Positions 3,736-28,895 of a DNA stretch of 64,000 nt are shown one piece after another. The notes beneath the pieces are model-generated. The model saw nothing but the letters and a program-made list of their open reading frames with translations, was not told the origin of the DNA and made no database searches. Source of the DNA: a virus; IMG/VR virus record IMGVR_UViG_3300032116_000148, positions 4,861 to 68,860 of that record; one strand, 5' to 3'. Within the stretch, counting starts at the first letter, position 1; every line of letters starts with the position of its first letter. The position numbers and the translations under genes are program-made.

Positions 3736-5033
3736 GATTGATTAGTAATTATGTCTGAAGTCTCTGAGAGCTTCATGTAGTTATAGTCTATAGTGAACCT
3801 GCATTTAGTTCCCTTGCCCTCACCGTCTCTAATCTTCAAGACTTTTAACCAGTATTCTCTGGCTGCATGCATCATTTGATCTTGTATGATAGCATACATC
3901 ATATCTGCAGTGTGGGCCAAACCGGCAGATTCAGCGATATTTTGCATGGTGACTTCTGTTGCGTCCCATGCGCCTCTAGTTAATTGAGTTGCCGTTATGA
4001 TCAACCAATCATTTCTAACAGCCATTGCTCTAAGATCTTCTGCTATCTGCTTTATCTTCAAGTATGTATTTTCGCTGTTAGGATTTCTATAGTTAGCAAG
4101 AATGTTGATGTAATCGATGACAATGGCTTTTAATTTGAACCCTTGCTTCTCTTCAAGACTCTTGAGAAAGTTTTCAATTTCCAGAACAGTGGCTTGGCTC
4201 GTTGGAAATTCTTTAACGAATAATTTTCCAGGTGGCATGAGACCGTTAGAAATTCTATCTAATCTTCTTTTTAGAAAATCTCTATCTGCACTTTTTTGTT
4301 GGTACTCTGACATCTGAATTCCTAGAAGATTAGCTCCTATTCTTTTCATCACTTTAACTGCAGCCATTTCAGCAGTAACATAAACAGTGTTATATCCCAT
4401 CCTCACAAAATTTGCTGCATCATTGGCCATCCAAATAGATTTTCCGACGTTTTGTTCTCCGGCATAAACAATGAGAGATTTAGGATCATATCCGCCATTA
4501 GTTAGTCTATCGATGAAAGTAAGACCTGATTGAATCTTCTGACCTTCTAGTTGAAGGTGATCTTCAGGTGAGAAAAAGTCTAAGCCGAATTTTTCATCAA
4601 AAGAAAGAGAACCTTGGTTAAGAAGACCGATTGCGTGGTTGACAACATTTTCTACATTGTCAGGTGATACTTCTTGAAGCTTTACATATTCAACGACAGA
4701 TATCAATTTTCTATCGAAATACTGCCACTTGACCCAGGCCTCAGTAGTTCTTTTTAACCACTCTTCATCATATTCTTTAATGTCAGTTTGAAAGATTGCT
4801 TCTACAATGTCATCATCTAATTTTCTCTTAGTTTTGATGTCTTTGATCAAAATCTTTAACTGCTCTTTAGAAGGAGTCTCTGAGAATTTTGTGAGAAACT
4901 GTTTAGAAACTTTCGCCAAAAGATCAATATCAGGATTCTTGAAAAATCCTTCGTAGACTTTGTCTAAGAGAATTGGGTTTCTCAGAAAATACAAGAAAAA
5001 AATCTTTTCAAAATCTACACCGTAACGATCCAT
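3732..5033 (-). CDS. gp41: DnaB-like replicative helicase (T4 gp41-like)
   Basis: Walker A AGEQNVGKS, YVTAEM, Walker B IVIDYINI, TATQLTR, IAESAG, LKIRDG. Confidence 0.93.
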   Translation of the reverse strand: MDRYGVDFEKIFFLYFLRNPILLDKVYEGFFKNPDIDLLAKVSKQFLTKFSETPSKEQLKILIKDIKTKRKLDDDIVEAIFQTDIKEYDEEWLKRTTEAWVKWQYFDRKLISVVEYVKLQEVSPDNVENVVNHAIGLLNQGSLSFDEKFGLDFFSPEDHLQLEGQKIQSGLTFIDRLTNGGYDPKSLIVYAGEQNVGKSIWMANDAANFVRMGYNTVYVTAEMAAVKVMKRIGANLLGIQMSEYQQKSADRDFLKRRLDRISNGLMPPGKLFVKEFPTSQATVLEIENFLKSLEEKQGFKLKAIVIDYINILANYRNPNSENTYLKIKQIAEDLRAMAVRNDWLIITATQLTRGAWDATEVTMQNIAESAGLAHTADMMYAIIQDQMMHAAREYWLKVLKIRDGEGKGTKCRFTIDYNYMKLSETSDIITNQS

Positions 5034-6619: not shown

Positions 6620-7768
6620 CTAAAAAACAGAAGCAGAATAAACAAGATTCCGATCTAATTTACCTAGACCCATTGCATCAATGACTCGATTGATAGGATC
6701 GACAATGCATCTTTCGAATTGCAGATCATGATCTACGCTAGGAGCAAATTCCACGGGAAAATCTCCTGGAGGAAAAGCAAAGACGTTACAAGTCTTGTCT
6801 TTACTGATGTAGTATTTGATCTTTTCACCGTCCGTCAAAGTCTTATAACGATTCTTGTATTTGCTGTTATTCAAGAGATAGTTGTAGTAACCTGCAGCTC
6901 TGATATGGATGGGACACCCTGAAGCAATCTCAAAATGATCATAATCTGAAAGAACGTATTTTCGATAGTTGTTAATCCTAACGTTGAAAGTAATATGTTC
7001 AGTATTAGCCAACTTGAATTCTCTTTTCAATTTCTTAAGTAGATTGACAAGATCACTGAGCTCGACTTTTTCCACAGAAAATATGAATTTGAGAACTTCT
7101 TTCAGCTTATTTCTAGCAAAGAGAGGAGTACTTGATTGAATGATCTCAAACCCTTTAGCGCTGATTTTTGTAAGAGGCTCATAATGCAGATTAGGATCTT
7201 TCCAAACGATGTTCTGCATGTATTTTTTCTTGGCCAACCAGATGGCATTCTTAGCGATGGATTCCATCTCAAAATCAAGAAAATTATCTGCGTTGAGATC
7301 CTTTGCATATTTTTCAAGAACTTTAACATTGAAGCTGGAGAGACGGTATTCGTACAACTTAAGTACGAATTCTTTTTCATCTCCTTTCCACGTACAGTTT
7401 TCTAAAACTTCCTGAAAGCTCAAATAACATGAATCAGTATCAATGTAAATGACCATAGGCTTTTTGATCTGACCCGTGATTTCAATTCCCATTTTTTCAT
7501 GCACCTCTTTGTCTTTGGTCCAGTACTCCTGAAAGTACTTATTGATCATCTTTTCAGTATAGAGGATCGCATCCTGACCTTGCAAAGTGATGGTTTCAGC
7601 AATATCAACATTGAAAAAATAGAACCACTCGTTACCGAATGCTCCGTAGATAGAGTTCAGCATGAGCTTTACGGCCTGTTCAAAGTTATAGTATTTCTGA
7701 GCTTCGAACTCTACCTGAGCCAATCTTTCTTGTAATTCTTCTAGCTTTTCTCTTTTACTCATTGTCAT
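6620..7768 (-). CDS. gp43B: Family B DNA polymerase, C-terminal subunit of a split gp43 (fingers/palm/thumb)
   Basis: Motif B KLMLNSIYG, ITLQGQ, motif C YIDTDS, AKKKY, KGFEIIQSSTP; no exonuclease or motif A. Confidence 0.92.
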   Translation of the reverse strand: MTMSKREKLEELQERLAQVEFEAQKYYNFEQAVKLMLNSIYGAFGNEWFYFFNVDIAETITLQGQDAILYTEKMINKYFQEYWTKDKEVHEKMGIEITGQIKKPMVIYIDTDSCYLSFQEVLENCTWKGDEKEFVLKLYEYRLSSFNVKVLEKYAKDLNADNFLDFEMESIAKNAIWLAKKKYMQNIVWKDPNLHYEPLTKISAKGFEIIQSSTPLFARNKLKEVLKFIFSVEKVELSDLVNLLKKLKREFKLANTEHITFNVRINNYRKYVLSDYDHFEIASGCPIHIRAAGYYNYLLNNSKYKNRYKTLTDGEKIKYYISKDKTCNVFAFPPGDFPVEFAPSVDHDLQFERCIVDPINRVIDAMGLGKLDRNLVYSASVF

Positions 7769-12433: not shown

Positions 12434-13846
12434 TCATAGCTCGTTTTTTATGTTCTTAATTTCTTCTCTTAATTTTTCAGCTTCGACTTGATACTTCTTA
12501 GATTCTCCTTTGTAGACCTTTCGATTTGTGTAGAGCTCTGTCAAGATGTTCTTGAGAATAGAATCATCCTTCTTATAGATGGCACCTGTTACCGATACGA
12601 TCTTATCAGGAGATTTTTCTTTCAGAGCTTCGACAGGATCGATCTTCTTGATGAAAGATTCAGGGCTGATATTGATCTGCCTCATGATCGATGGATATAG
12701 AGAAGCAAAGTCAAAGCAGGCAACTGCTCTGTGCATTCCTACGACAGGAGCTTTTACATAGGCTCCAGTATATTGTGTGTCTTTTCTTGAATCTTCAACG
12801 AAGTTTCTGGCCATTACTTTATTCTGAGCTAAGAATTTTCGGCAGAGCATCGATTCAGTAATTGCGACCGGTGAAGCTGCTTTGTAAATTCCAATCCTAC
12901 ACATAGTAGCAATAGTCAATGCAATATCCATCGTTCTCAATTTCTGATGGATGAGATATACGAGACAGGTATCTACCACGTTGTAATAGACGTATTTTGT
13001 ATATTCTTTTTCGTACAAATCTTGGATGGTACCGCTATACTTGATTTTTTTCAATCCAACTACTGCTTCGGCTGTAGAATCGAGAGTAAAGTTTTCTTTG
13101 ATAAAATCTGAACGATCCCATTTTCGATAGAGTTCCAAGTAGTCCATCATTCCTACGTGAAGAGGGAGATTTTCCTTTCCCCAGAGTTCTCCGACTGGGC
13201 TTGATATTGCTGGATCTATTGCTAGCTTGGAAGCTCGATTGACAAGATATTTCCAGTCAAAGTTAATGAAGTTCCAACCTGTGATCATTGGAAACTTTGA
13301 AACGAAAGATTTGAAGAATGTATAGAGAAGATCGTATTCTGAATCAAATTTCTTATAGACAAAACTAAATCTCGTATTTGTGTCTTTGAAATAGTCATCG
13401 ACATCATTTTGAATCTTCTGTTGTTGATCTTGGGGAAGATCTCCAGTAGCCAAAACAATCGCTTGTGCGTTTGGTGTAACTATTGCTATGGTAGTGACCG
13501 GTGTATCTGCTCTATCGGCTTCAGGGAAGCCGTCCTTGACTTCAACCTCGATATCTACAAAATAGGTCTTTGGTAAGTTGTAACCAAATATCTCTTCAGT
13601 TTCCTCAAAGGATAGCTCATCGATGAATTGGATGAGAGAGTATTTGTCTAGTGATTTTGAAGCCGTTCTTTTGACTGGTCGGCCGTCCCAGTTTCTGAAT
13701 TTATCTGATTTGTTCTTGTCTCTTTCTTCACAGACTTCCCAGTTGGCGACTTGGCTTACTTTATACTGTTTGTAGTTAGTGTTGCCTTCTTTGTCGTAAT
13801 ATGAAATTGTAAGGTTCGTCCCTCTCTGTTGTACATCAAGCAGCAT
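12434..13846 (-). CDS. gp43A: Family B DNA polymerase, N-terminal subunit of a split gp43 (3'-5' exonuclease + motif A)
   Basis: ExoI DIEVE, ExoII GWNFINFD, ExoIII YNVVD, YTGAYV, motif A DFASLYPSIM; ends in the fingers helix ELYTNRKVYK plus a coiled coil. Confidence 0.92.
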   Translation of the reverse strand: MLLDVQQRGTNLTISYYDKEGNTNYKQYKVSQVANWEVCEERDKNKSDKFRNWDGRPVKRTASKSLDKYSLIQFIDELSFEETEEIFGYNLPKTYFVDIEVEVKDGFPEADRADTPVTTIAIVTPNAQAIVLATGDLPQDQQQKIQNDVDDYFKDTNTRFSFVYKKFDSEYDLLYTFFKSFVSKFPMITGWNFINFDWKYLVNRASKLAIDPAISSPVGELWGKENLPLHVGMMDYLELYRKWDRSDFIKENFTLDSTAEAVVGLKKIKYSGTIQDLYEKEYTKYVYYNVVDTCLVYLIHQKLRTMDIALTIATMCRIGIYKAASPVAITESMLCRKFLAQNKVMARNFVEDSRKDTQYTGAYVKAPVVGMHRAVACFDFASLYPSIMRQINISPESFIKKIDPVEALKEKSPDKIVSVTGAIYKKDDSILKNILTELYTNRKVYKGESKKYQVEAEKLREEIKNIKNEL

Positions 13847-14519: not shown

Positions 14520-15290
14520 TCAACGCCAACCCTCAAGAGACTTTCGAAAAGAGATGAATTCCTCAACTGCATCTATCACGCTTTTCGATCTGCTAGATTT
14601 TGCTAGATCAAGTAATTGTTCATGATCGAGCATTTCGAATTTCGAGCGTGAGGTACGAGGCGATAATTTATCAAGAGAAAAGTGAGTTTGCCCGAAGGGG
14701 TCTTTATCTAAAGGATACGCAATTGCATTTTTCATAGCGAAGTTTAAAGCTTGTTTAGCGTCTTTCTCATTCAAAAACCTACCAGGCATTGCATATTCTC
14801 TGTAATCTGAATTAGGATAATTCTCGTAAAGCGCTAATCGAAGCGAAGGTGCCTTAGAATTTGTACCTGCGAATTTGAAGTCAGCTTCAACAGAAAAATG
14901 TTTTATGAATGGCGCAAGTATGTTTTCTGCTTCGGCTAAAATGTCTGCAGGAACTGGAGAAGGTGTGTTGGCGATTCTCTTTTGTAAGTCTCTATAGTAA
15001 TTTTCATCAACTCTTGCGCTATCAAGCCCTTCTTGAATTGAATCTGCATTAATCGTAAGCTCTTCTACATTAAACGCATCGTCAATCGGCCCCCTAGAAT
15101 AAAGTCTACTATTTCCTGTATTATATTCAAACGTTAATTTCTTCAAGAGATCAATATATTTTTGGGCAGCATTTTTGTTATCGAAGAGAAAATTGCCAGC
15201 CTCATATACTTTCATTGTTCCCTTATTCTCAATTATACGTTCAGAAGAGAGAGAAACGATGAAGTCTTCGTAAAGTTTTACGTATTTCAT
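14520..15290 (-). CDS. Putative internal head protein with capsid-targeting-like N-terminus
   Basis: Starts MKYVKLYEDF; TATAAATA upstream at 15313-15320. Confidence 0.55.
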   Translation of the reverse strand: MKYVKLYEDFIVSLSSERIIENKGTMKVYEAGNFLFDNKNAAQKYIDLLKKLTFEYNTGNSRLYSRGPIDDAFNVEELTINADSIQEGLDSARVDENYYRDLQKRIANTPSPVPADILAEAENILAPFIKHFSVEADFKFAGTNSKAPSLRLALYENYPNSDYREYAMPGRFLNEKDAKQALNFAMKNAIAYPLDKDPFGQTHFSLDKLSPRTSRSKFEMLDHEQLLDLAKSSRSKSVIDAVEEFISFRKSLEGWR

Positions 15291-15312: not shown

Positions 15313-15320
15313 TATTTATA
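15313..15320 (-). promoter_or_regulatory. T4-type late promoter
   Basis: Exact TATAAATA overlapping the upstream stop codon. Confidence 0.55.
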
Positions 15321-16197
15321 CGAGTTTCTTGAGATCTTTGTTAGCATCATCGATAGTCTTCGATTCTTTCTTGAAGACTCCGAGAAGCTTGTTGATCGCT
15401 CCCTTGATGGCATTCTTGATCTTGTCAAAGATTGAAGCTTCTGCTACAACCACTTTATCGATGGAGAAGCTGTGCTTTACCTGAGTGACTTTTTTGCTTG
15501 CTTCGAGAGCCTCTTCAAGAACTCTACGAGTTGCCGCATTTACTTTACCGAGAGCGTTTTCAAAAGCAGTCTTGTAGGATGCATCTTTTCTCTCTCCACC
15601 GAAGCGGGAGACCTTGATCACGAACCCTTCAGTCTCAGCCAACTTATCGCCGACTTCTTTCATTCCATCAAGCATCGGCTTGACTTCTCCTTCGAACTGC
15701 TTGAATGCGAGCTTCTTTTCTTCAAGCTCGGCTTCCATTCTCTTAATCTCATTCTGGAGATCGTAGAATTCAGCGATGCTTGCTTTAACTCCTGGATCAT
15801 CGATGAAAGCTTCAAAGACGAATTCTTCAAACATCTTTACTATTTTCATATCTTTCTTTGTTTTTAATCTTTTGCGAGAAGCCGGTACGTCTCCGGATCC
15901 TGTTCTTTGAGTAGGAAATGACGTGAGATCTCCTGGATCTCCTGAAAAAGAGACAGCTCCCATTCCATTGACATTAGATGGAGTAGCCATCGACTCGTCC
16001 TTCTTCTTTACTTTGTTAGGCAAGCCTTTGTGTTTTGTGGCTGCAAAATCTTTCAGCTGCTTCTGGGTCATTCCCTGAGAGAGATCTTCTATCTCGTCTC
16101 TGTACTGGGGATTGATATCAGATGGATCAAGATCACCCTTTTTAAGAGCATAAGCTTGAGCCATGAGCCGTTGTTGTGCTATTGAACGTGCTGGCAT
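15316..16197 (-). CDS. Modular putative internal head protein: DUF3008-like N-terminus, internal capsid-targeting motif, coiled coil
   Basis: MPARSIAQQR...MTQKQLKDFAATKHKGLP resembles DUF3008; internal MKIVKMFEEFVFEA. Confidence 0.55.
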   Translation of the reverse strand: MPARSIAQQRLMAQAYALKKGDLDPSDINPQYRDEIEDLSQGMTQKQLKDFAATKHKGLPNKVKKKDESMATPSNVNGMGAVSFSGDPGDLTSFPTQRTGSGDVPASRKRLKTKKDMKIVKMFEEFVFEAFIDDPGVKASIAEFYDLQNEIKRMEAELEEKKLAFKQFEGEVKPMLDGMKEVGDKLAETEGFVIKVSRFGGERKDASYKTAFENALGKVNAATRRVLEEALEASKKVTQVKHSFSIDKVVVAEASIFDKIKNAIKGAINKLLGVFKKESKTIDDANKDLKKLV

Positions 16198-16209: not shown

Positions 16210-17349
16210 TTATCTTTTAACTTGAATTTCATCATCTAAAATGATGCTGTAATCTTCGACAAAAGCTTCAATGTCTTCTTTAGATCCTACGATAGAAAAA
16301 CCTGATGAAGTTCTATCTTCAACATCTAAATTATAGTCTTTTTTAATTTCTTTATCAGATCCTCCCGGTTTTCTTCTATCGTCTATGTATGCAATATATT
16401 TTTCATCGTTCTTTTCACGAAGAGGACCAGAACCGCCTGCGCCTAGTGCAAGTTCAGTGTTCTTCTTTAACCATGCTAGAGCTTTGCCAGCTGAATACTT
16501 GAGCATCTTCTTGAAAGTAGTGGCCACGTCTTCAATGTTCCCACCTGGCTTAGCCTGGTAGCCGTAGACTTTACCGTTGATGCTCACATAGAAAAAGTCT
16601 TTAGTGAGATCGAGTGGATCGACGATGAGGTTTTCTTCTAAGCCGAATTCTTCGTAAATTTCAAGAACTTCGGATTCGTTGAGGGCGCTCATGATCACAT
16701 GGCCGCTCTTAGTCAAAGAATAGTATTTTATACCGTCCTCTTCTTCAACTTTGAAAAAGTGAGAGTTACGGCTGATCCACTTCGTAGGAGCTCCAGCCTT
16801 AGAGACTGCATCCATGAAATCCTGTTCTGCGACTCTGCCGTTTCTTAAGATTTCGAGAACCTTATTACGAACTGGAGCGTTAGCATAAACGTGGTTGAGG
16901 GCGATGCGGCCTTCGTGGAGATTTTCATTTTCTCCGTCTTGAGCCATGTGGGCAGCTTCATCGTATAGAGAAGTTGGTAGATCATATCCAGCTTTCTTGG
17001 CAGCCGCATGAGCTTTATTATAATCGTTCGGTAATGCGCCGCCGAAAAAATCTAACACCGAGAAGGCGTCTGGAAATTTCTTGGCTTCATTGATGAACTG
17101 TTCGAAGAGTTTTAAGTGCTTCATTATGCTATGTGTTTTTAGATTCATTGGTGAATTGCTCTCGCCTACGAAGAAGTCTGCTTCTTTACCGTTGAGAGTC
17201 TTCCCGTCTTCCCAGGTGAGACCGATCATGTGGCCGTTAGCTGCTTTGATCATGTAATCGCCTTTCGCCTTGACTACTTGGTAACCTTTGTTGCTCCAGT
17301 AGACCTTTTTGCCAGCGTCTACAGCTGCTTTTATTTCCTGAGCGTTCAT
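16210..17349 (-). CDS. Modular putative internal head polyprotein
   Basis: Internal MKHLKLFEQFINEA; segments punctuated by VGE, INE, LHE, LNE, LEE, LRE. Confidence 0.55.
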   Translation of the reverse strand: MNAQEIKAAVDAGKKVYWSNKGYQVVKAKGDYMIKAANGHMIGLTWEDGKTLNGKEADFFVGESNSPMNLKTHSIMKHLKLFEQFINEAKKFPDAFSVLDFFGGALPNDYNKAHAAAKKAGYDLPTSLYDEAAHMAQDGENENLHEGRIALNHVYANAPVRNKVLEILRNGRVAEQDFMDAVSKAGAPTKWISRNSHFFKVEEEDGIKYYSLTKSGHVIMSALNESEVLEIYEEFGLEENLIVDPLDLTKDFFYVSINGKVYGYQAKPGGNIEDVATTFKKMLKYSAGKALAWLKKNTELALGAGGSGPLREKNDEKYIAYIDDRRKPGGSDKEIKKDYNLDVEDRTSSGFSIVGSKEDIEAFVEDYSIILDDEIQVKR

Positions 17350-18635
17350 TTAAGCTCTATTTTTATTTCTTCTGATATGAGAGACTTATCGACTTCTTCG
17401 ATGAAAATGCCTTCCATGACACGCTTATCGTTCAGATAGTCTCCGAAAGTCTTAAACCCTGAAGCTTCTTTTTGATGAGTGATCTCCTTGATCTTATTTA
17501 TCAACTTGTTAAGGTCTTGGATGACCAGCGGTGTGAGAACATCGTTAGATCTCTCGGGGTCTCTCTTCTTCCTAAGACAGTTGAGGAAGATCTGGAAAAT
17601 CTTTTCGTTGTTACCAGATTTTTCGATGATCTCTCGAGTCTTTTCGTTTGGAATCATCTCTACGTTCAGAGAATGTTCAGCATTCTTGGCAAAATCCCGA
17701 GTCTCGAAATTCAAACCTTGTAGGTCTGATTCTCTCTTCTCCATGTAATCGTTGTAGATGGAGCAGACGAGAGTGAGATACTTTTCGTCTGGAAATTCTC
17801 CTAGAGCCATTTCAGACTTGATGCCGTGAGTCTCTAAAAACTCTAACAAGTCTAAGAGGAGTATCGATACTGAATCGGTGGATCTACGTTTGCTCGCCTC
17901 TTTTTTGTAGAGAGACTTCATGTAGGGGTCGACTATCTTGGCAGTGACTATTGATTCTCCACCAGGCTTTACGAACTTGAAGATGAGAGAATCGAAGACT
18001 GTCTCATCATCACCGGCCAGAAGAGGACGATATGTGTAATAGCCTTTGGGATCTAATATGCTGAAGAGGTATCTGAAAAAAGAATCGGTACCGATTATTT
18101 CCTCCAGCTCGTCTTTAGGAACCGCTAGAAATTCAAGGATCTTTTTCTTTCTTTCATCGTCTAATTTTCCAGCGAAGAGCGGAGGATTCTCAGAGACTCC
18201 TAAGCGATGAGCCCAGTCAGAGAGTACTCGTGGATCTTCCACTGTCTTTAGAGTTCTCGTATTTTGAGGATTCTTGATCATGATCCTGCTGAGGATCAAA
18301 CCTGATGGAGGAACTTTGCCATAGATGGAAGTCTCACCAGGAAAATAGTCGAAGCCGAAGAGCCAGTCTTCAGGCATTTTGAGCTTCACGTCCATCGGAA
18401 GATCTTCGAAGTGTTTGATGCCTTTCTCGTAAAAGAGGGCAAGAGTACGATCGATGAGATTGATCTTTTCTTCACCTTTCTTAAAATAACACAGAGAAGA
18501 ACCTTCTCTCATGACATAGAAGTCTGAGGCGTTGATCTTCTCAGAGACTATCACATAAGAATCGAAGAGGTCCTGTAGAAAAGTCTGGCCTCTTTCTCGG
18601 TAAAGCTTGTCGAGCTCTGGTATGTTCCCTATCAT
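17346..18635 (-). CDS. Divergent RNA ligase 2-like nucleotidyltransferase fold protein
   Basis: Motif-I-like VSEKINAS, III-like FGFDYF, PPLFAGKL, IV-like DSLIFK, V-like AKIVD in the correct order. Confidence 0.5.
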   Translation of the reverse strand: MIGNIPELDKLYRERGQTFLQDLFDSYVIVSEKINASDFYVMREGSSLCYFKKGEEKINLIDRTLALFYEKGIKHFEDLPMDVKLKMPEDWLFGFDYFPGETSIYGKVPPSGLILSRIMIKNPQNTRTLKTVEDPRVLSDWAHRLGVSENPPLFAGKLDDERKKKILEFLAVPKDELEEIIGTDSFFRYLFSILDPKGYYTYRPLLAGDDETVFDSLIFKFVKPGGESIVTAKIVDPYMKSLYKKEASKRRSTDSVSILLLDLLEFLETHGIKSEMALGEFPDEKYLTLVCSIYNDYMEKRESDLQGLNFETRDFAKNAEHSLNVEMIPNEKTREIIEKSGNNEKIFQIFLNCLRKKRDPERSNDVLTPLVIQDLNKLINKIKEITHQKEASGFKTFGDYLNDKRVMEGIFIEEVDKSLISEEIKIELK

Positions 18636-19834: not shown

Positions 19835-20497
19835 CTATCGATCGAGAGTATTACTTGAATTGAGAAAATTCATTAGAATAAAATCTCTATCAAGAATAGG
19901 CGGAACAACAGCAGTTTTTAAAAATCCTGGATCAATTCGACCCTCAATCATGCCTGCCCAACTCGATGCTGTGCGCCATCTCTGTTCATTTCTCTTTCTC
20001 GGCGCAAGATAATAGTAGGTAGGTTTGATCCACGCCATGAAAAGTTTCACAGGATCTTTTTGATCAAAATCCATGAATGCTTCAGAATATGATGGAAAAA
20101 ACTCTCCTTTAGGATCTACCTCAAATTCTACTGTAAATTTTGCATCATCCGGAAATTTTACTGCTTTGAGAACTTTTTCAAATTCTTGGTAAGCTTTTTT
20201 AGAATCAGCATTAAAGGCTTTTACTGCATTTTCAAGATCTTTTTCGATCTTTTTCTTGTCGATTGAAAGGGTCGGATCAACTATCAAAGCTTTTCGAAGA
20301 GAAGTTATGTTACGGAACTTTTCGATGATCTCTAATCTCCGATTCCTAAGACTTGTTAAATCTATGCGAAAATTAGGCACTTCTACACCCGCTGCCTCCA
20401 AATCATAAGAGCCAAAACGATCTCCGGTAGGATTTACTTTCATAGCCTCATTAATTCTAAGGTCTATGAACTGTTCGAATAATTTTACGTGCTTCAC
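19835..20497 (-). CDS. Putative internal head protein with capsid-targeting-like N-terminus
   Basis: GTG start, MKHVKLFEQFIDLRINEA. Confidence 0.55.
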   Translation of the reverse strand: MKHVKLFEQFIDLRINEAMKVNPTGDRFGSYDLEAAGVEVPNFRIDLTSLRNRRLEIIEKFRNITSLRKALIVDPTLSIDKKKIEKDLENAVKAFNADSKKAYQEFEKVLKAVKFPDDAKFTVEFEVDPKGEFFPSYSEAFMDFDQKDPVKLFMAWIKPTYYYLAPRKRNEQRWRTASSWAGMIEGRIDPGFLKTAVVPPILDRDFILMNFLNSSNTLDR

Positions 20498-28553: not shown

Positions 28554-28895
28554 TTAAATTCTTTTTCCTAAGTGAAATCCAATGGCTGCTCCGACTAATC
28601 GGCTGGTAAAGAGATCGAATAAAAGACCCTTTTCAACTCCTAATGCGTTCGCCACAATTTTGCCGACTCCCTGCCCTAGAGCAAATCCAGTTAGTCCACC
28701 GAGAATAGAACCGATGAAACCCTCGTTAGTGAGCTCTCGTTCTAATTGTTCTAAAGTATAACCTTCATCTTGGGCCTTCTTAATGAAAGCAGCTACTGCC
28801 TCGTCTATCGCGTTCTGATCGACAGATTCGTTCATCACAGCTTCCAAATCTTGAAAGTCTTCTTTTTCTCCAATGAATTCTTTGAATGTCTGCAT
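28554..28895 (-). CDS. Putative internal head protein with C-terminal glycine-zipper hydrophobic segment
   Basis: MQTFKEFIGE is close to the T4 CTS MKTYQEFIAE; NE then GFIGSILGGLTGFALGQGVG. Confidence 0.6.
   Translation of the reverse strand: MQTFKEFIGEKEDFQDLEAVMNESVDQNAIDEAVAAFIKKAQDEGYTLEQLERELTNEGFIGSILGGLTGFALGQGVGKIVANALGVEKGLLFDLFTSRLVGAAIGFHLGKRI

Follow-up and report, generated by a model that had tools for sequence, protein, structure and literature searches.

Can a phage gene be put together from interchangeable small modules, addressed as a single chain to the phage head and cut apart there? This question is raised by one open reading frame (ORF), at positions 16210-17349 on the minus strand of the 64,000-nucleotide stretch analyzed here (hereafter the window; positions 4,861 to 68,860 of IMG/VR virus record IMGVR_UViG_3300032116_000148). 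A first-pass annotation, made from the letters alone, had parsed this ORF into about five mini-domains parted by hydrophobic-x-Glu sites, and had proposed that small effector genes are recruited by in-frame fusion to one targeting tag and released by the head protease. Its observation of the ORF layout was confirmed by our analysis and its interpretation was partly supported. On balance we lean, though not strongly, towards reading the ORF as a capsid-targeted modular cargo polyprotein that would be cut by the head protease and whose products would be ejected into the host. This reading is drawn from the shuffling of the modules, a motif at their junctions, a tag that resembles the capsid targeting sequence (CTS) of phage T4, and an S77 protease encoded by collinear relatives.

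The source is a distant T4-like jumbo phage. Its contig (68,860 bases, about 25% complete according to CheckV, G000 below) carries 60 called ORFs, all but one on the minus strand, including T4-type genes for gp46/47-like, UvsX-like and gp32-like proteins, a DnaB-like helicase, ribonucleotide reductase, a baseplate wedge protein and a family-B DNA polymerase. Matches to 39 of the 60 ORFs, in the same order, were found in two larger relatives, G001 (234 kb) and G003 (256 kb, with terminal repeats and rated complete).

Modules of the open reading frame

The region 16210-17349 is a single ORF of 379 amino acids (aa). Its parts are listed below together with pLDDT, the predicted local distance difference test score of AlphaFold2.

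16210..17349, minus strand: whole ORF, 379 aa, in the order A - linker - tag - B - C - D - E
17158..17349, minus strand: block A (aa 1-64), a small helix and beta-strand domain, usually an untagged stand-alone phage protein
17125..17157, minus strand: linker (aa 65-75), A-rich, open only in frame 0, pLDDT below 50
17086..17124, minus strand: tag (aa 76-88), MKHLKLFEQFINE then Ala, resembling the T4 CTS and internal in this ORF
16912..17085, minus strand: block B (aa 89-146), helical, terminating in ...ENLHE then G, pLDDT 53-73
16675..16911, minus strand: block C (aa 147-225), winged-helix-like, terminating in ...LNE then S, pLDDT 79-94
16414..16674, minus strand: block D (aa 226-312), alpha/beta, with a Gly-rich linker and ...PLRE then K at its end, pLDDT 63-83
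16210..16413, minus strand: block E (aa 313-379 and the stop codon), acidic, low in GC, a probable recent import, pLDDT below 50

The start ATG shares bases with the stop codon of the upstream gene (ATGA), and the annotation supplied with the source (P0001, 304 aa) places the start at the internal Met76, which is the first residue of the tag. Met76 lies at 17124 with AAAAACACATAGCATA directly 5' of it, the A-rich context that the first-pass annotation had pointed out. Every hydrophobic-x-Glu site that it had listed was found in place in the 379-aa protein: VGE-S at residues 61-64, INE-A at 86-89, LHE-G at 144-147, LNE-S at 223-226, LEE-N at 237-240 and LRE-K at 310-313; the stretch YYSLTKSG, also singled out there, occupies residues 209-216. 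LEE-N falls within the helix that opens block D, which is conserved (LEIYEEFGLEEN), and for that reason is not a boundary. The protein accordingly has five modules (A to E) and the tag; a count of six or seven is too high.

Predicted structure points to a similar division. AlphaFold2, run on the 379-aa protein with an alignment of 41 rows, gave a mean pLDDT of 61.5 and a predicted template modelling score (pTM) of 0.34. The prediction was confident or fair at residues 1-63, 97-138, 157-225 and 241-302, and pLDDT fell below 50 at residues 64-96, 139-156, 226-240 and 303-379, where the junction sites are located. The pLDDT profile, the pTM and the occurrence of every unit alone in other proteins (see below) suggest several independently folding units parted by flexible linkers, as expected of a polyprotein; a structure prediction of this kind had been proposed as a check for independent domains, and its low-confidence segments coincide with the junctions.

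Base composition sets the last block apart. The GC counts made by hand in the first-pass annotation (37/120 at 16261-16380 and 56/120 at 16501-16620) were exact on recount, and the shift that they indicated falls precisely at the junction of blocks D and E: block E (16213-16413) has a GC content of 0.299 and a GC content at third codon positions (GC3) of 0.179, while GC3 in blocks A to D is 0.38-0.59. Among 3565 windows of 67 codons along the contig, only 0.17% have a GC3 of 0.18 or less. The GC content of the relatives is 0.32-0.34, as against 0.406 for the contig. Given the break in GC3 and the existence of lower-GC relatives, block E was probably imported recently from one of the latter. 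The remaining windows of extremely low GC3 fall in a tagged gene (19835-20443), and this gene (19835-20497, GC3 0.149) is another candidate recent import.

Database searches assigned little function to the modules. A Pfam scan of the whole 379-aa ORF returned no family, hence no protease domain either, and a PHROGs scan of the whole ORF returned only phrog_35422 and phrog_37263, both in block A and both without assigned function. The match of block A to phrog_35422 had an E value of 2e-6. Block A (pLDDT about 87) was present in 101 of 179 proteins examined, mostly of 63-180 aa, where it starts at residue 1 and carries no tag. It also matches a stand-alone 67-aa protein in BFVD (E 2.6e-5, target TM score, TMt, 0.82), and a tblastn search against 50,697 phage records gave a single match, in which block A falls within a hypothetical protein (113 aa) encoded by Xanthomonas phage Xoo-sp13. 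Small proteins with block A are widespread among phages and have no assigned function. A Tad2-like (DUF2829, PF11195) identity was considered and rejected, as 0 of 30 block A proteins match PF11195 at E values up to 1; there is a weak fold likeness to Tad2-like proteins (TM 0.54-0.57 in the Atlas, under the bar; DUF2829 at rank 36 in BFVD, E 0.047). For block C, the top Foldseek matches in the PDB were all winged helix-turn-helix proteins of the ArsR/PadR/MarR type, with probabilities of about 1.0 and weak E values (best 7.5e-3, none reaching 1e-3), and Pfam gave no match. No named relatives of blocks B, D and E were found in family and homology searches of the ORF.

Shuffling of modules and the motif at their junctions

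The first-pass annotation had proposed searching each block separately, and had named full-length collinear homologues folding as one domain as the result that would speak against a mix-and-match protein. Homologues were collected by a word-indexed search (42 proteins) and an exhaustive HMMER search with E values up to 0.001 (best 150 of 771), for a total of 179 proteins examined, the ORF itself and 178 others. Among the matches listed, the order A-tag-B-C-D-E was repeated in none of the 178 other proteins, and every block from A to E was also found alone; no full-length collinear homologue folding as one domain was among them. Computation thus supports the view that modules A to E are mix-and-match, standing alone or in other orders and combinations in relatives.

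The contexts of the individual blocks are varied. The anchor motif of block B occurs in 8 sequences and is preceded either by the tag or by another module. Block C is found alone (P0047, 100 aa), directly after the tag (P0014, P0017, P0022 and P0023) and after at least 6 other modules. Block D stands alone in proteins of 90-147 aa (P0046, P0049 and P0113) and follows something other than block C in the DUF5824 protein P0028. Block E stands alone in proteins of 64-83 aa (P0057 and P0056), directly after an N-terminal tag in P0032, P0036, P0037 and P0040, and also inside proteins of 600-800 aa. These assignments rest on anchor motifs and not on gapped BLAST high-scoring segment pairs, which overcount blocks B and E and had credited blocks B to E to P0025, P0026 and P0062. 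P0025, a candidate collinear homologue by its gapped alignment, aligns only over the tag and blocks C and D under compositional statistics. Most tagged genes of G001 and G003 encode one module (90-314 aa) and lie in tandem arrays of up to 14, for example at 193-200 kb in G003; at the syntenic locus of the two relatives there are also longer proteins (674 and 913 aa) that combine several modules and bear a shortened tag.

Across these proteins the modules change and the motif between them stays. Immediately before the anchor of block C, [LIVM]-x-E-[GA] is present in 25 of 25 sequences, with N, H, Q, S, V or D at P2 and at least 10 non-homologous upstream contexts. Block B is preceded by INE then S, INE then A or LNE then G; block D by [ILMV]NE then [SAG]; block E by LRE then K, INE then K, LVE then K or ISE then M; and a further module, J, by LNE then A, VNE then A, LRE then S or LHE then S. 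A conserved motif of putative cleavage type stands at each junction, as expected of a polyprotein; the T4-type (gp21, S77) prohead protease cleaves at hydrophobic-x-Glu when a small or polar residue comes next. Within the 379-aa protein, compared with 5000 shuffles, [LI]xE occurs 7 times (mean 4.2, P=0.10), [LIVMF]xE 13 times (mean 8.2, P=0.04) and the stricter [LIVMF][NHDGASTR]E[GASKN] 5 times (mean 1.5, P=0.014). The weight of the motif comes from the comparison across sequences and not from these counts.

The tag, its putative cargo and its internal position

The tag, MKHLKLFEQFINE followed by A, was compared with the N-terminus shared by T4 IPII and IPIII, MKTYQEFIAE followed by A. In the T4 CTS, residues 4 and 7 are described as serving targeting, and residues 8 and 10 processing by gp21; an Asp at P1 prevents this processing (PMC9026906). 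Counted from its Glu, the tag has an aromatic, an aromatic, an Ile/Val/Leu and a Glu at the positions equivalent to 4, 7, 8 and 10, and so combines the short propeptide, aromatic targeting residues and Ile/Leu-x-Glu end of a T4-type CTS. A T4-type CTS is also N-terminal; here the tag begins at residue 76 of an ORF that opens at 17349, and it would be N-terminal only if Met76 serves as the start.

The tag recurs across the genome and its relatives. Eight ORFs of the window have such a tag, at their start or further in. A DNA pattern for the tag was found 3 times in G000, 22 in G001, 10 in G002 and 12 in G003, on the coding strand only, with no hit of the reversed pattern in any record; by these pattern counts, the tag opens 10-22 genes per relative. 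Among 39 tag instances in G000, G001 and G003, Phe codons split 18/16 and 17/17 between TTC and TTT, and since synonymous codons vary freely, conservation of the tag acts on the protein. All but two of the 39 instances lie within 18 codons after an in-frame stop, the exceptions being the ORF 16210-17349 and its neighbor 15316-16197. A scan of IMG/VR with a DNA pattern for residues 1-10 only returned at least 142 instances in at least 134 stretches. In the instances listed, position 13 is Glu in 128/142 and position 11 is I, V, L or M in 129/142, most of the 14 without Glu13 have a hydrophobic-x-Glu a few residues later, and an in-frame stop lies at most 20 codons upstream in 129/139.

Other genes of the window that bear on the tag are the following.

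14520..15290, minus strand: tag-first gene, MKYVKLYEDF...
19835..20497, minus strand: tag-first gene with an apparent GTG start, KHVKLFEQF..., containing the lowest GC3 window of the contig (0.149)
26533..27660, minus strand: tag-first gene, MKHIQLFEDF...
28554..28895, minus strand: small gene, MQTFKEFIGE then K, of all genes in the window the one most like the T4 CTS MKTYQEFIAE

The last of these is conserved, with 42-46% identity, in both G001 and G003. The gene 14520-15290 has an exact T4 late-promoter-like TATAAATA about 25 bases in front of it.

The proteins that follow the tag are diverse. A Pfam search of 41 tag-first proteins of G001 and G003 left 36 without a family. Two of the others are Acb1-like (PF23474; 31.3 and 28.3 bits against a cut-off of 27), one resembles an AAA_33/Zeta-toxin-like kinase, one is a GNAT protein and one is ATP-grasp-like. 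The Acb1-family proteins are encoded at L038:5918-6457 (G001) and L029:18665-19201 (G003). The tagged cargo may accordingly include a counter-defence enzyme, Acb1 being directed against the cyclic oligonucleotide-based antiphage signaling system (CBASS).

A protease that could act on such cargo is encoded by the relatives. PF03420, the family of S77 (gp21-type) prohead proteases, was found above the cut-off in three of the five records (G001, G002 and G003), and in neither the source contig nor G004, both of which are fragments. The head module of G001 and G003 begins immediately past the position where the source contig ends. It consists of the portal, a small tagged protein, the S77 protease with an acidic coiled coil and a Gp23-type capsid protein, an order that mirrors T4 genes 20, 67, 68, 21, 22 and 23. 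The small protein that carries the tag here, between portal and protease, occupies the position of T4 genes 67 and 68. In both relatives (G003:51569-53383 and G001:139642-141564) the S77 domain is fused to a 400-aa acidic coiled coil rich in IAE/VAE/LAE, as if T4 gp21 and gp22 had been combined in a single chain; in the ORF of a relative on L018, the S77 domain takes up about residues 1-190.

Between block A and the internal tag lies a 36-base A-rich spacer with stops in both other frames, linker and tag together have a GC content of 0.306, and the linker looks like a former intergenic spacer. The in-frame join is nonetheless present in a second assembly: X10 (record 16), a contig of another study, spans 17022-17366 and differs at 0 positions. 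The evidence from sequencing runs consists of assembled contigs, not raw reads, and carries no information on transcript ends or translation; in the RNA runs listed, under a tenth of the sampled sequence words were present. Because the independent X10 carries the identical in-frame join, the fusion between block A and the tag does not stem from an assembly error. In P0002, P0003, P0004 and P0006 an additional module of about 100 aa stands in frame between block A and the tag. In a well-covered lake-water relative, 361 letters replace 17083-17156, and this replacement matches the extra module of those four proteins. P0031 and P0045 have block A joined to a tag without Met, and P0030 and P0042 have a Met-less tag between two modules. 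Run X15 gave two further joints, 16497>16786 and 17124>17425, each from one contig with 85% likeness and short sides, which we treat as hints only.

The adjacent gene is built in a similar way.

15316..16197, minus strand: neighboring ORF, DUF3008 - Lys-rich linker - internal tag (Met117, 15849) - coiled-coil cargo

Its N-terminal part matches PF11450 (DUF3008) with an E value of 5.3e-8, and the fusion of DUF3008 to the tag is kept in 25 full-length homologues of 66-92% identity. The first Met of the tag is replaced in 15 of these 25, and the tag of P0204 has no Met at all. The unfused, tag-first form of the neighbor occurs in at least 14 other proteins. Tags that lack Met and internal tags that are conserved imply that the internal tag is a maintained state in this clade and not an accident. 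Of the proposed recruitment by fusion to one targeting tag, the in-frame fusion has stood, as X10 attests; the tag, however, lies internally behind an untagged domain and is sometimes Met-less. Over 16009-16053, in the DUF3008 core, many short contigs in four runs align only across this 40-45 base stretch with unrelated flanks, which indicates that DUF3008 is very common in these metagenomes.

Nested translation starts had also been suggested. Among 381 internal ATGs the start context of Met76 ranks at the 92nd percentile, and among annotated starts at the 30th; that of Met117 in the neighbor reaches the 99th percentile of internal ATGs. In-frame internal starts are annotated in T4 as well (21', 26' and 49'). 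Judged from these contexts, internal initiation at Met76 is possible. Gene starts of the contig in general have A-rich, G-poor sequence 5' and no Shine-Dalgarno-like signal; such start contexts are typical of Bacteroidota phages.

Readings of the locus and further features of the contig

Under the polyprotein reading, the tag would dock the protein on the scaffolding core during prohead assembly, and the S77 protease would sever the chain behind the Glu that ends the tag and at the hydrophobic-x-Glu sites between modules. The freed small proteins would remain in the head and then be ejected with the DNA into the next host. The relatives have arrays of separate genes made of the tag and one module, and recombination or deletion at the conserved tag and junction sequences could fuse, swap and insert modules. 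The same recombination could join untagged genes in frame to the front of tagged ones, as with block A here and with DUF3008 in the neighbor, and block E would be a late arrival from a lower-GC relative. Two products would be possible, an A-fused form from 17349 and a tag-first form from Met76, and perhaps both are made.

A wider claim can be made only tentatively, and we put it at somewhat under an even chance. The 13-residue tag would then be the capsid cargo code of a large clade of uncultured T4-like jumbo phages from freshwater and other metagenomes, with 10-25 injected effectors per genome, Acb1-like proteins included. The head protease would dice multi-effector polyproteins, and the tag and junctions would act as in-frame recombination joints admitting untagged genes on either side.

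Several observations weigh against a capsid-targeted polyprotein. Targeting, cleavage and ejection are all deduced, this phage group being known from sequence. The source contig, about a quarter complete, carries no protease or capsid gene, and in an alignment of the relatives' capsid proteins with T4 gp23, no matching hydrophobic-x-Glu was evident at the gp23 cleavage position. LR756500.1 (462 kb), the closest genome in the phage collection by DNA polymerase (53.7% identity), contains no tag patterns, which makes the tag specific to the clade. In front of tag genes, the T4 late-promoter motif TATAAATA showed no enrichment (2/47 vs 17/617). Some of the tagged cargo, such as Acb1 and the kinase, acts in the cytoplasm in other phages and may do without packaging. 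The count of hydrophobic-x-Glu within the single protein is barely above that of shuffles, and the tag ends in three residues similar to the junction motif, which could therefore be a fossil of recombination between tags and not a selected cleavage site. Finally, it is at the N-terminus that the T4 CTS is demonstrated to function (PMC9026906), and no experimental precedent was found there for an internal CTS behind a folded domain.

These points bear on three alternatives. The protein could be targeted to the capsid and lose its tag while its modules stay linked, the junction motifs being leftovers of former tags; we consider this unlikely, if by no means far-fetched. The commonest junction, [ILV]NE, is indeed identical to the end of the tag, fossil tags stand between modules in P0002 (truncated, after block B) and in P0030 and P0042, the site count in the 379-aa protein is near chance, and T4 IPIII is not known to be cut anywhere but at its CTS. 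Leftovers would, however, hardly be expected to keep a hydrophobic P3 and a Glu P1 in 25 of 25 sequences while P2 and the upstream sequence drift, and the contexts include ones unlike the tag (...PLQE, ...YVVE, ...ALHE). The sites moreover lie in segments of pLDDT below 50, which a protease recognizing a motif could reach. A shade more doubtful is the idea that the tag is no capsid signal but an N-terminal amphipathic helix with another role (binding a partner or membrane, or affecting translation or stability), which would make the ORF a mosaic cytoplasmic protein. Packaging itself being a deduction, this idea gains from the share of genes that are tagged in the relatives, about 7-10%, with enzymes that are cytoplasmic elsewhere among them, from the location of tag genes among replication genes without late-promoter enrichment, and from the conserved internal Met-less tags, by which an N-terminal place is not required. 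It sits poorly with the position-by-position match to the T4 CTS and the Glu kept invariant three residues past the last aromatic, with the tagged head-module protein between portal and S77 protease, and with the return of the same motif at module junctions; the synonymous codon variation excludes a purely nucleotide-level signal.

Very improbable, in our assessment, is that two genes have been read as one, block A being separate, its stop lost through an assembly error or a recent non-functional mutation, and the product starting at Met76. That is where the gene caller of the source (P0001) starts it, at an ATG whose context ranks high among internal ATGs (92nd percentile) behind a 36-base spacer of intergenic appearance with stops in the other frames; block A usually stands alone, ending near ...FF[IV]GE, and the contig of one lake-water relative diverges exactly at 17124. 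What speaks against it is the identical in-frame junction in the independent assembly X10, together with the four proteins that run in frame from block A through the module of about 100 aa to the tag, the two that join block A to a Met-less tag (P0031 and P0045), and the like fusion in the adjacent gene, conserved down to 66% identity.

The polyprotein reading has partial counterparts in described systems. The internal proteins of T4 (IPI, IPII, IPIII and Alt) and their CTS are alike in the two aromatics, the Ile-x-Glu and the small residue that follows, in hypervariable cargo and in a gp21/S77 protease in the lineage. Unlike them, the present tag has 13 residues instead of 10 and a consensus of its own, and it marks 10-22 genes per genome, whereas T4 has only a handful of CTS-tagged genes. 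Known from sequence alone, the present proteins also differ in being chains of shuffled modules with a motif at each joint and in placing the tag behind an untagged domain. That a CTS allows T4-like phages to load varied head proteins has already been published (PMC9026906, PMC3012670). Jumbo phages such as phiKZ, 201phi2-1 and SPN3US are alike in having many internal head proteins and multiple cuts after Glu in one substrate. Their head propeptides, of 111-254 residues, are described as thought to target proteins into the prohead (PMC5694885, PMC10052503). Their motif is S/A-x-E, whereas here it is hydrophobic-x-E as in T4; their N-terminal part is discarded, whereas here the pieces are predicted folded domains that also exist as stand-alone genes; and the present group has T4-like replication genes and a Gp23-type capsid protein. 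In the hyperplastic regions of T4-type phages, PeSL cassettes are described in which small non-essential genes are swapped, lost and gained by recombination between short conserved sequences (PMC2839356). In those cassettes, promoters and terminators travel along with the whole genes, whereas here the conserved sequences lie inside coding sequence and would give in-frame fusions. Polyvalent proteins, which according to Iyer and colleagues (2017) reportedly combine many small conflict-related domains in a single chain delivered along with the DNA and partly processed by protease, are said to be very large and often to carry their own protease, unlike the 379-aa protein with no protease domain by Pfam. 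Literature searches, with subscription journals mostly outside their coverage, found no description of the tag by its string and, on capsid targeting, polyproteins and prohead proteases, only work on T4 and SPN3US, with no chained shuffled cargo or internal tags.

If the tag works like the T4 CTS, the repertoire of injected proteins of uncultured jumbo phages could be read from their sequences, and injected proteins are the first to meet host defences. Growth of such a repertoire through the in-frame chaining of small effectors with protease sites would, if true, be a route undescribed for T4. A compact and naturally diversified grammar of tag and linker would also be useful for loading foreign proteins into phage heads.

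Some further features of the contig and its relatives were observed. Two separate genes, about 4.7 kb apart, encode the family-B DNA polymerase, one its N-terminal part (12434-13846, minus strand) and the other its C-terminal part (6620-7768, minus strand). Both ribonucleotide reductase subunits and three ORFs lie between the halves, and the same split is present in G001 and G003. The same tagged gene is found at both ends of G001 (371-400 and 233562-233591), a record labelled linear, which suggests a terminal repeat. Lastly, the gene upstream of the ORF (17346-18635, minus strand, 429 aa) matches no Pfam or PHROG family, and its homologues of 623-626 aa hold the same position in G001 and G003, beside the multi-module tagged gene.

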